From Escherichia coli (GTDB lineage Bacteria > Pseudomonadota > Gammaproteobacteria > Enterobacterales > Enterobacteriaceae), in the NCBI RefSeq assembly GCF_003334255.1, contig NZ_QOWU01000042.1: 47,091 nt of DNA, one strand, 5' to 3'. Every line of letters begins with the position of its first letter. Within the stretch, counting starts at the first letter, position 1. Shown piece by piece: positions 71-3,325 of this stretch. A model generated the notes under the pieces. The model was not told where the DNA came from. It was given only the letters and a program-made list of their open reading frames with translations, and made no database searches. Position numbers and translations under genes: made by a program.

Positions 71-508
71 ATGTCAATACCTTCAAATCTTGATGTTTTT
101 AATGAAACAGTTGGTAAAACTTTTGCGTTTCTTTATGAAACTTTTCCCCGCAAAGTAACTATTGATATTTGTGCCTTAACCGGTGTTTCAGAGCTGACTT
201 TTGAAGAAGACCGATCCTCCAGGAGGCAACTAGTTGAAGCTCTTGAGCTTCGCCGTGACTCCATCGCATGGCTTGTTGATGCTGGTTATGTATCCGCTAA
301 ATCTTCTCCTCCGCATTACTTTTCTGATGCGGTTCTCACGGCCAAAGGTCTTGAATTACTTAAGCTTGATCCAGAGTCACTTAAACAATCATTTGGCGAC
401 AAGCTTGTTGATGCAGCCAAGAGTGGCTCAATGGACGCGATAAAAAGCACCGCATCATCCGCTCTTACTACTGGGTTATCCTTTGCTTTCAAAAGTCTTC
501 TTGGTTGA
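71..508 (+). CDS. hypothetical protein, prophage-associated, unknown function (about 145 aa)
   Basis: ORF track 59..508; a GGAG motif 7 nt upstream favours the ATG at 71. Convergent with the Cox-like gene. No family recognised. Confidence 0.4.
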   Translation: MSIPSNLDVFNETVGKTFAFLYETFPRKVTIDICALTGVSELTFEEDRSSRRQLVEALELRRDSIAWLVDAGYVSAKSSPPHYFSDAVLTAKGLELLKLDPESLKQSFGDKLVDAAKSGSMDAIKSTASSALTTGLSFAFKSLLG

Positions 509-589: not shown

Positions 590-1015
590 TTAAGCTGCTT
601 TTTTACTGATACGTTTATTCCGTGAACCAGCTGCTGGCTTAAATAAAAAAAGTCGGTTTTCCCATTCGTGCCATTCTTGCGGTGCGTTTTCAGTGAGTCG
701 ATCGCAGGCTTCATCCCATGCTTTCCGGTTGATGTAAAGTTCGGCGTTTCCGCCAGGCTTGAGAGGGTCCGCCATGTACACAGCGGGTAATTTCCCTGCT
801 TTTGCCATGCTCACGATGGCGTCAACGGTCTTGCCGATATACATCGCAAACCCTTCTTTTGACAGGAGATGAGAAGGGTTTTGTGAAAGCCTGATTTCTT
901 GGCGTTCAGGGGCTTTGCGCCCGGTCTTTTGGTGTGCGGTTTCTGGCGCATCTGTCAACTGATCGCACTGTGTTTCGGCAGGCGATTCAGGCGCGTTTTG
1001 AGTGACTTCTTGCAT
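590..1015 (-). CDS. P2 Cox-like excisionase/regulator with N-terminal extension
   Basis: C-terminal half (GFAMYIGKTVDAIVSMAKAGKLPAVYMADP...AW) resembles P2 Cox (EFAKLIGKSTGAVRRMIDKGKLPVIDMTDP...AW) as recalled. Start chosen at the ATG at 1013..1015, preceded by GGAGG; the ORF track extends to 1096. Confidence 0.55.
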   Translation of the reverse strand: MQEVTQNAPESPAETQCDQLTDAPETAHQKTGRKAPERQEIRLSQNPSHLLSKEGFAMYIGKTVDAIVSMAKAGKLPAVYMADPLKPGGNAELYINRKAWDEACDRLTENAPQEWHEWENRLFLFKPAAGSRNKRISKKAA

Positions 1016-1122
1016 CTGGTATCCTCCGTTATTGGCCCCTTTTTCGAATAGGGACCATGTAGAACCAATTGCGACTATTCTTGTGTTGCTATACACAAAA
1101 ATTATTGGAGATTAGAAAAATT

Positions 1123-1395
1123 ATGTCAATACCGCAAAATGAGAAATTAAAACTTATCAGAGAGTCCGAACGGATGAAAATGAAGGAACTATCTGATTTA
1201 ATTGGAATTAATTACTATACATATCATGGCTATGAAAGTGGGAAATCTAAGATGCCTCTTGATTTTGGGATCCTTCTTTTGCGGCACGCTCGTTTCCGTA
1301 AATACCGTGACTGGTTTTTGTTCGATGAGGTCGAACCAAAGGCCGGGCAGGTGGTACCGGCTCTCGCACACATTGGGCAAAGCGAAGCGGAATAG
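1123..1395 (+). CDS. P2 C-family immunity repressor paralogue (90 aa), second copy
   Basis: XRE-type helix-turn-helix N-terminus (EKLKLIRESERMKMKELSDLIG...YESGKS) and a C-terminal 33 aa identical to the downstream C repressor. Ends at the TAG at 1393..1395, lacking the last 9 residues of the full-length copy. Confidence 0.55.
   Translation: MSIPQNEKLKLIRESERMKMKELSDLIGINYYTYHGYESGKSKMPLDFGILLLRHARFRKYRDWFLFDEVEPKAGQVVPALAHIGQSEAE
1294..1393. repeat. 100-bp perfect direct repeat, copy 1 (3' end of C-type repressor gene)
   Basis: Identical to 1678..1777 by direct comparison; offset 384 bp. Confidence 0.9.
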
Positions 1396-1506
1396 TTCAT
1401 CTGATACCCTCCGTTATTGGTGCTATTTCTATTAGCACTAGTTAGAGCCGCCTAGATTGTCTATAGGTGTGTTTATTGATGCATAAACTAAGAGAGTTAA
1501 CTTACT

Positions 1507-1806
1507 ATGTCAACTAACGTAGGTGAAAAAATTAGAATCATGCGTAAGTCTGAAATGCTTACACAAGAAAAAATGGCTGAAATTACAGGGCTCACGGTAG
1601 CGGCCCTGCGTCAATATGAACAGGGGAGAAATGAGCCAAATCTTGAATCCACAAAAAAGCTGCTCAAGTCTCCCGTCTTCCGTAAATACCGTGACTGGTT
1701 TTTGTTCGATGAGGTCGAACCAAAGGCCGGGCAGGTGGTACCGGCTCTCGCACACATTGGGCAAAGCGAAGCGGAATCATCCCACTCCGGCAAGAAGACT
1801 GGTTAA
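1507..1806 (+). CDS. P2 C-type immunity repressor (99 aa)
   Basis: 99-aa ORF; sequence (MSTNVGEKIRIMRKSEMLTQ...YEQGRNEP...VPALAHIGQSEAESSHSGKKTG) closely parallels P2 repressor C as recalled (MSNTISEKIVLMRKSEYLSR...YESGRSTP...APALAHFGQNETTSPHSGQKTG). Lies immediately upstream of int. Confidence 0.8.
   Translation: MSTNVGEKIRIMRKSEMLTQEKMAEITGLTVAALRQYEQGRNEPNLESTKKLLKSPVFRKYRDWFLFDEVEPKAGQVVPALAHIGQSEAESSHSGKKTG
1678..1777. repeat. 100-bp perfect direct repeat, copy 2
   Basis: Identical to 1294..1393. Confidence 0.9.
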
Positions 1807-1872: not shown

Positions 1873-2868
1873 ATGTCGATTAAGAAGCTCGCTGATGGCA
1901 AATACTGTGTGGACGTGCGGCCTGCTGGATCTGAAGGAAGAAGATTTCGGCGGCGATTTCCTACCCGTGGTGAAGCGGCGATGTATGAACGCCATGTTCT
2001 GACGCATTATCACGATAAGGACTGGGTCGAAAAACCTATTGAACGTAAAGCGTTAAGCGATCTTCTGGAACTGTGGTGGGTGTACCACGGTAAGAATCAT
2101 CGTTATGGCGCGATGAATCGGGTCAGAATTGAAGCGGTTCTTCGTGATATGCAAGAGCTTGGTATTAACAGAAGTGACCACTTAACCCGAAAAAATATTA
2201 TCAGATATCGCCTTGAATTAATGAATCGCGGAATTAAGCAGTCAACGGTAAATCGTTATTGTGCAATGATGAGCGGTTTCTTTGAAAAGCTGATTGATGT
2301 TGAAGAGTTTGTGGGTGATAACCCATTTCACGAGATACGCAAGCTAACAATTAATCAGCCGGAAATGGCTTATCTTGCACATGATGATATTCCCAGGCTA
2401 ACCGCACTTTTATCTGGCGATAATCTTAAGGCTGTATTGTTAAGCCTGGCTACAGGCGGACGCTGGGGTGAAGTTGCCAATATTAAAGGTGAACACATAA
2501 TTGGTGGGAAGGTTATTTTCATGGAGACAAAGAATGGATCGCGGCGGGTTATTCCTATAGCTAAAGATCTTGAATCTCTGATTAAAGTCAAAGCGACGGG
2601 AAGATTAATGAACCCCAGTTATGCGATAGTCAGAAGTGCAATAAGGACTGTGCGGCCTGATTTACCAGTCGGTCAGTCTGTGCATGTTTTACGGCACACA
2701 TTCGCAACTCATTTCATGATAAATGGAGGGAACATTATTACCCTTCAGCGTATTTTAGGGCACAGCACAATTCAGCAGACAATGACCTATGCGCACTTTG
2801 CACCTGATTATCTCCAGGACGCGGTAAGGTTCAATCCGGTTGCGGAGTTGTCCAGATTTTGCCCATAA
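1873..2868 (+). CDS. int: P2-like tyrosine integrase
   Basis: N-terminus MSIKKLADGKYCVDVRP and C-terminus HVLRHTFATHFMINGGNIITLQRILGHSTIQQTMTYAHFAPDYLQDA parallel P2 Int as recalled, including the catalytic R, H-x-x-R and Y. The ATG at 1873 is preferred over the ORF-track start at 1837. Confidence 0.85.
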   Translation: MSIKKLADGKYCVDVRPAGSEGRRFRRRFPTRGEAAMYERHVLTHYHDKDWVEKPIERKALSDLLELWWVYHGKNHRYGAMNRVRIEAVLRDMQELGINRSDHLTRKNIIRYRLELMNRGIKQSTVNRYCAMMSGFFEKLIDVEEFVGDNPFHEIRKLTINQPEMAYLAHDDIPRLTALLSGDNLKAVLLSLATGGRWGEVANIKGEHIIGGKVIFMETKNGSRRVIPIAKDLESLIKVKATGRLMNPSYAIVRSAIRTVRPDLPVGQSVHVLRHTFATHFMINGGNIITLQRILGHSTIQQTMTYAHFAPDYLQDAVRFNPVAELSRFCP

Positions 2869-2958
2869 ACGGGGACTAAATGGCACGATTTTGAACCACT
2901 TTGAACTTGTAACTATTTGATATATCAAGGGGTAGTGCGGTACACGCTACCCCCTTAT

Positions 2959-2982
2959 GCCACCTTCGGGTGGCGTTGTTTT
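2959..2982 (+). terminator. intrinsic terminator downstream of int (gccacc-ttcg-ggtggc followed by a T-rich run)
   Basis: 6-bp GC stem with a ttcg loop followed by gttgtttt, read in sequence. Confidence 0.5.
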
Positions 2983-3325
2983 ATGCGATGTATCTCGCGA
3001 TTTTTTTTTGTAACTTTTCCATCTTTTGCTTTTCTCTCCGAGCCGCTTTCCATATCTGCAATCGCATAAAAAACTCTGCTGGCGTTCACAAATGTGCAGG
3101 GGTAAAACGGGGGCACGCTTTGAACGGTGAGTATGAGTGAGGTCGGCTAACTTCCAGCAAGTGGCTATGAACAGCAAAATGGTGGTCGGGTTTGCTTGTT
3201 CTTACCGTTCAAGCCTTGCAACCGCTGAGAATAATGATGGTGGAATAGAGAGTTTATTTATCGCGGGCATAAAAAAACCCTTACTAACCGAAGCCCGGCG
3301 TTCAGGGTTATTGCGCTAGAAGAAC

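Follow-up and report, generated by a model that had tools for sequence, protein, structure and literature searches.

The long form of Cox in a probable P88-like prophage of Escherichia coli and its N-terminal tail

The DNA analysed here, a stretch of 47,091 nucleotides from Escherichia coli (contig NZ_QOWU01000042.1) that is called the window below, carries near its first letter a phage switch region inserted beside the chromosomal gene ppa. The genes follow each other in the order cox (minus strand), a 107-bp spacer, a C-type HTH repressor gene, a second C-type repressor gene, int (all plus strand) and ppa, and the flanking chromosome is E. coli ppa-ytfQRT with 98.9% identity. Coordinates are collected in Table 1. 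We read positions 590..1015 as a cox gene that belongs to a P2-type prophage adjoining ppa, similar to P88 (Xuanwuvirus), and that is translated from its first ATG into a four-part protein of 141 amino acids; to this reading we assign a probability of about 0.85. The four parts would be a 39-residue N-terminal tail predicted to be disordered, a winged helix-turn-helix (wHTH) with the fold of P2 Cox, two C-terminal helices, and a basic disordered C-terminal tail.

Table 1. Positions of genes, signals and protein segments in the cox region of the window.
Feature	Position	Strand	Description
145-aa ORF	71-508	+	just downstream of cox, opposite strand; terminator-like hairpin at 547-580
cox gene, long form	590..1015	-	141 codons plus TAA stop at 592..590; ATG at 1015..1013
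Cox codons 121-141	593..655	-	basic C-terminal tail, 21 residues, net +7, ending Ala-Ala (from composition)
Cox codons 40-120	656..898	-	Cox winged helix-turn-helix domain, net -3 (PF10743, AF2, Foldseek)
Cox codons 28-39	899..934	-	conserved basic patch HQKTGRKAPERQ, net +3, directly before the Cox domain; consensus K.xRKxPEREE
Cox codons 1-27	935..1015	-	conserved tip MQExTQN, then variable acidic disordered stretch, net -6 (alignment; pLDDT <50 for residues 1-32)
N-terminal peptide of predicted long form	from ATG 1015..1013	-	(M)QEVTQNAPESPAETQ..., start MQEV...
Shine-Dalgarno GGAGGA	1022..1027	-	GGAGG at 1027..1023, 7 nt before the ATG
Candidate early promoter Pe	1101..1129	-	-35 TTGACA at 1129..1124, 17-nt spacer, -10 AATAAT at 1106..1101; 11/12 consensus
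C-A, C-type HTH immunity repressor, 90 aa	1123..1395	+	76% identity to 'C protein / immunity repressor' of P2-like phages; divergent partner of cox
C-B, C-type HTH repressor, 99 aa	1507..1806	+	second module
int	1873..2868	+	

The reading frame is as the first-pass annotation had described it, with the same strand, start codon, ribosome-binding site and length, and the peptide quoted there is exact. Over 590..1015 the DNA is 100% identical to a coding sequence of E. coli DETEC-S792 that PGAP annotates as 'Cox family DNA-binding protein' (WP_001561239.1). The regulatory protein of phage P88, also of 141 amino acids, is 84% identical to the window Cox over its full length including the tail; the differences cluster in tail codons 4-27 and in the C-terminal tail. 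Anti-Shine-Dalgarno pairing was compared for all in-frame candidate starts within the first 60 codons. It is strongest at ATG1 (-9.5 kcal/mol), in agreement with the earlier choice of this codon, and moderate at ATG58 (-5.2 kcal/mol), which is preceded by AAGAAGGG. A search for internal TTG or CTG starts with a ribosome-binding site had been proposed; TTG20 and CTG51 lack a Shine-Dalgarno sequence, with pairing of about 0 kcal/mol, and there is no ATG, GTG or TTG near codon 40. A GTG further upstream at 1096 would give an ORF of 168 amino acids but can be dismissed as a start: no Shine-Dalgarno sequence precedes it, its position coincides with or precedes the predicted start of Pe transcription, and other loci carry in-frame stops 6-45 nt before the ATG.

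The extension is shorter than was first proposed. The Pfam Phage_Cox model (PF10743) matches residues 40-120 over model positions 1-86 of 87 (E 1.5e-27). A phmmer search against the PDB aligned residues 53-117 with residues 14-79 of P2 Cox (4LHF, E 1.2e-5), which places Met1 of P2 Cox opposite residue ~40 and therefore leaves an extension of 39 residues. The boundary of the Cox domain is thus at residue ~40 and not at residue 58. The figure of 55 residues given by the first-pass annotation came from taking Met58 as the start of the domain, whereas in the AlphaFold2 model Met58 is inside helix alpha1 (residues 53-60).

The 39 residues are not uniform in charge. The label 'acidic' is apt for residues 1-27, which contain six D/E and no K/R, but not for residues 28-39, where the net charge is positive. 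The same layout is seen in the relatives: of 14 non-redundant representatives, 13 have a net negative charge in the distal tail, and the 12 residues proximal to the domain are usually net positive. The label 'proline-rich' is weak, with 3 prolines in 27 residues and no conservation of proline enrichment among the 14 representatives. The tip MQExTQN is conserved in the E. coli and Salmonella members, and members from Yersinia, Pectobacterium and Rahnella start differently.

Structure prediction agrees with this division. In the AlphaFold2 model, computed with an alignment, pLDDT is below 50 for residues 1-32 and 130-141 and the fold is confident from roughly residue 49 to 124. The predicted elements are a strand at 50-52, helices at 53-60 and 64-72, strands at 78-81 and 92-96, and helices at 97-110 and 113-124. 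Their order is that of the Cox fold, beta1-alpha1-T-alpha2-beta2-L-beta3 followed by alpha3-alpha4, as described for P2 Cox (PMC3936717). A Foldseek search of the PDB returned 4LHF as the only match at E <=0.001, with a TM score of 0.76 on the target and an rmsd of 2.7 A over 76 columns at 26% identity.

Profile searches separate the window Cox from the P2 type. The family phrog_1831 (121 positions) matches residues 25-133 at profile positions 11-119 (E 2.8e-50), and the P2-type family phrog_272 matches residues 44-116 only (E 5.4e-9). NCBIfam gave no family match to the protein, and the N-terminal 48 residues searched alone gave no PHROG match. By profile, fold and gene position the window Cox belongs to the Phage_Cox (PF10743)/P2 Cox family. 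Within it the protein is a member of a long Cox subgroup (phrog_1831; P88-type), whose profile extends N-terminal to the P2-type domain and whose acidic and basic extension starts at a conserved Shine-Dalgarno sequence and ATG. It shares with P2 Cox (91 aa; 4LHF; phrog_272) the Pfam family and the winged-HTH plus two-helix fold, but differs in the low identity of the structural alignment, in having the 39-residue N-terminal tail and the basic C-terminal tail, and in its end, ...KKAA instead of ...GEPR. The long Cox proteins of P88 and related prophages (WP_001561239.1 / WP_001158283.1) have the same long form as the window Cox. The suggestion of a longer Cox variant was therefore sound, since the long form is found in close homologues, in PGAP/RefSeq, in the P88 annotation and in PHROG 1831. 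The subgroup is common in Enterobacterales prophages.

The other explanation offered at first was a mis-assigned start, according to which translation of Cox really begins around residue 40 or at Met58 and what precedes is untranslated leader. P2 Cox, without any extension, gives this idea some appeal, as do the pairing at ATG58, which could conceivably direct a minor internal product, and a few database entries annotated with shorter starts (P0012, 119 aa; P0014, 122 aa; P0079, 102 aa). The homologues, however, do not as a rule start near the conserved region. Nearly all of 137 homologues are 117-178 amino acids long, and 117 of the 119 that contain the anchor motif LLSKEGF, a sample made up mostly of close Salmonella and E. 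coli relatives, have at least 10 residues before the start of the Cox domain (median 32, range 10 to 73). A search with the core only (residues 40-141) among 1.84 billion representatives gave 20 clusters, most with 23-65 extra N-terminal residues and three with none. Two distant members of 41% identity (P0132, P0133) have an unrelated tail sequence with the same acidic-then-Lys-rich layout. Family members that lack the extension include P0127, P0128 and P2 Cox.

The start itself is conserved as well. The cGGAGGATAnCAg-ATG context is kept at eight loci from four genera (E. coli, Salmonella, Pectobacterium and a Yersinia phage), and since in several of these loci in-frame stops occur 6-45 nt upstream, the conserved ATG is the first usable start. 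Residue 58 is Leu in 90 homologues, Met in 31 and Gln in 6, so Met58 is no conserved start. Judging from the model, initiation there would also cost the protein strand beta1 and the greater part of helix alpha1. By itself, an open frame of 39 codons is non-significant, being expected by chance with a probability of about 0.15 (a rough estimate), and the evidence that the extension is translated is therefore its conservation.

Nei-Gojobori counts of pN/pS over 11 loci bear on this point directly. Among the E. coli types, codons 28-45 have a pN/pS of 0.10-0.17 at a pS of 0.47-0.73, which indicates that the protein sequence before the P2-aligned region is under purifying selection; the Cox core has a value of 0.00-0.27. 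Codons 9-27 are near neutral (pN/pS 0.5-1.4), and the frame is always kept there despite many indels. The N-terminal tail is a real, translated, disordered segment with an acidic-then-basic layout and is common to most close relatives; a mis-assigned start is hardly credible. For annotation this means that the call of 141 aa is correct and that cutting it back to the size of P2 Cox would be an error.

The arrangement of the switch region leads to the same start codon. Like P2 cox, the window gene is the first early gene and is divergent from C-int across a spacer of about 110 bp. The -35 element of the candidate Pe overlaps the start codon of repressor C-A and its -10 element is 85 nt before the cox ATG. 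Annotated P2 shows the same overlap of the Pe -35 with the start codon of C; there C and cox are 114 bp apart, and 92 nt separate the end of the Pe -10 from the ATG of cox. In the long-Cox loci that were measured the spacer is 102-126 bp. Because the spacer and the Pe-to-ATG distances match, the geometry of P2 is obtained with the long start but not with an internal one; estimated from the -10 element and ATG58 at 844, the latter would create a 5' leader about three times as long as that of P2. The long-form Cox is an ordinary, already catalogued P2-type switch and excision protein, and its annotated start codon is correct.

Other signals in this region are less distinct. A k-mer search for cox-box repeats shared by the switch region (1000-1125) and the att arm (2830-3060) found only A/T-rich low-complexity words, and at about 26% identity the P2 cox-box consensus may not apply. 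The RNA of the leader and tail-coding part does not fold more stably than shuffled sequences (z = -1.32). An inverted repeat precedes the cox ATG by 10-35 nt, at the place of the Pc -35 element in P2. It is found in the window at 1034-1056 and again at about 1421-1439, and at three further loci (L002, L005, L007). Its arms differ by immunity type and stay complementary (GGTCCCT/AGGGGCC, GTGCTA/TAGCAC, GGTTCC/GGAACC) around a loop that retains a TAGAA/TCGAA motif, and the repeat tracks the repressor module and not Cox. Possible roles are those of an operator or of a hairpin in the leader RNA.

A literature search found no experimental study of P88-type Cox or of its tail. The paper on phage HQ103 manipulates cox and contains nothing on the N-terminus of Cox (PMC10321612). 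Nilsson, Cardoso-Palacios and Haggard-Ljungquist (2011) distinguish a 'group 2' of wHTH Cox proteins that are larger than those of group 1, and their data set includes PhiECA29, a prophage of Erwinia carotovora SCRI1043; the nature of the extra residues is not discussed in that paper (PMC3448106). An indirect link to that data set is a long-Cox homologue of 120 amino acids (P0106), whose source, P. atrosepticum SCRI1043, is the strain that harbours PhiECA29. The window Cox may fall into this group 2.

A record name can obscure the distinction between the two forms. The entry NC_070906.1, called 'Peduovirus P2' (P2SIDE7; locus L011, 1429-1785), encodes a long-type Cox of 118 aa with 60% identity to the window Cox, and not the canonical 91-aa P2 Cox of NC_001895. 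Names of this kind can mislead tblastn comparisons with P2 Cox.

The charge pattern and the homology with P2 Cox suggest how the tail might work. By that homology the window Cox would oligomerise on direct repeats, repress the lysogenic promoter Pc and direct excision together with Int, and its two C-terminal helices would correspond to those that mediate filament formation in P2 Cox. The basic patch could add DNA contacts beside strand beta1. The acidic stretch may fold back onto the basic patch or onto the basic C-terminal tail and serve as an electrostatic shield that would lower non-specific DNA binding and the formation of DNA-free filaments. Basic flanks are needed as partners in such masking, since the wHTH core itself has a net charge of -3. 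Selection would then act only on charge and disorder and not on the sequence of the tail. In the filament crystal of P2 Cox, residues 1-6 are disordered and free (PMC3936717), so an N-terminal addition may be tolerated by the filament.

Analogous systems lend this mechanism some plausibility. In p6 of phage phi29, a DNA-wrapping oligomer, removal of the acidic tail raises DNA affinity and the tail has been proposed to shield a basic patch (PMC10899789). Negatively charged disordered regions are described as a cause of autoinhibition in a further paper (PMC10250230). Both p6 and the D/E-rich disordered regions resemble the window Cox in placing a disordered acidic segment on an oligomerising DNA binder, but p6 has no homology to Cox and carries its tail at the C-terminus, so that the likeness is one of functional analogy. 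We put forward the combination of DNA contacts by the basic patch and shielding by the acidic stretch as a tentative account, possible and somewhat short of probable.

The tail may also be translated and yet have no function. In that case it would be a tolerated, disordered leader peptide, free to drift in both sequence and length and kept only because the Shine-Dalgarno sequence and ATG are fixed near the promoters. The near-neutral pN/pS of codons 9-27, a region that may indeed have little function, is what drift would produce, and the wide range of extension lengths, the low pLDDT and the members without an extension are in line with it. Drift alone does not readily account for the net negative charge of the N-terminal part in nearly all non-redundant representatives, for the conservation of the MQExTQN tip and the basic patch, or for the recurrence of the acidic-then-basic layout in distant relatives with unrelated tails. 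We consider a functionless leader rather unlikely.

Another option is that the tail is a handle for protein interaction, with a short linear motif at its tip to which Int, a host factor or a protease would be recruited, and not a modulator of DNA binding. There is a precedent in lambda Xis, whose disordered C-terminal tail contacts Int. The unstructured tail of lambda Xis and the cooperative binding of attP by P2 Int and Cox (PMC3936717) would fit such a role, as would the conservation of MQE(x)TQN at the extreme N-terminus of an otherwise variable disordered region. The tip is, however, conserved only among E. coli and Salmonella members, and a benefit of A-rich codons for initiation could explain this conservation equally well. 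An interaction handle is decidedly unlikely by our estimate.

Two further features of the protein may be mentioned here. The C-terminal Ala-Ala (codons 140-141, window 593-598) occurs in 94 of the 119 homologues and in 10 of the 14 non-redundant ones, and the residues preceding it vary. Such an ending resembles an ssrA-like ClpXP degron. Codons 10-30 (window about 926-988) are a local hot spot of divergence in cox genes that are otherwise nearly identical: in comparison with locus L013, they show 56-71% identity and the rest of the gene 89-100%. Since synonymous divergence is raised too (pS 0.62 for codons 9-27 vs 0.17 for the core), the comparison points to recombination of this segment and not to relaxed constraint alone. 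No tandem repeats were found in the tail-coding DNA of the window or of a 168-aa Salmonella form, and thus nothing indicates that simple tandem duplication lengthened the tail.

These features can be combined with the shielding mechanism into a wider proposal, in which the tail is a regulatory module specific to long Cox, an electrostatic gate that times filament formation on DNA and sets the threshold for the lysis-lysogeny decision and for excision. Recombination would exchange its hypervariable middle part (codons ~10-30), or satellites or host factors exploiting Cox, for instance, would exert diversifying pressure on it, and the Ala-Ala end would add ClpXP-type turnover. In this full form we think the proposal unlikely. 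If charged tails do tune filament formation or turnover, this would explain how switch thresholds are set differently from P2.

The position of the hot spot raises the question of whether the variable tail is an element of immunity specificity that co-evolves with the cognate C repressor or operator module. The tail-coding DNA adjoins the hypervariable immunity region, and its synonymous divergence exceeds that of the rest of cox. The pairings of tail and repressor contradict the idea: the same tail is combined with repressor type A in E. coli JNEC-KY202 and with type B in DETEC-S792, and in L013 a different tail is paired with type B. The tail thus does not track the repressor type. Co-variation of the two was ruled out by these pairings, and a role in immunity specificity is very improbable.

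The immunity region itself has a tandem organisation in the window. Two different immunity modules, each composed of a spacer and a C-type HTH repressor gene, stand in tandem and in register between cox and int (1013..1397 and 1398..1781). They are bounded by a 23-nt repeat, which contains the cox ATG and Shine-Dalgarno sequence and has an orphan copy at 1398-1420, and by a perfect 100-nt repeat at the 3' ends of the repressor genes (1294-1393 and 1678-1777). In complete E. coli genomes the modules occur singly, A alone in JNEC-KY202 (100% identity), where C-A has a full-length version of 99 amino acids, and B alone in DETEC-S792 (99%). A search with a query spanning both modules found no record covering more than 84% of it. 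From this arrangement, the prophage may have dual immunity, in which early transcription would need release from two repressors. Locus L014 (714-1392; GCA_946062945.1) likewise carries a tandem pair of C-type repressor genes, flanked by a long cox and by int; of the pair, the cox-proximal gene is truncated (85 aa) and the distal one full length (97 aa). Because L014 is an independent prophage, stacking of immunity modules recurs.

On the other side of cox lies the 145-aa ORF. It matches phrog_2266 (E 1.4e-31) and had no match in PADLOC. The ORF is also present in E. coli DETEC-S792, and phage P88 has nothing at that position; it looks like an inserted accessory gene.
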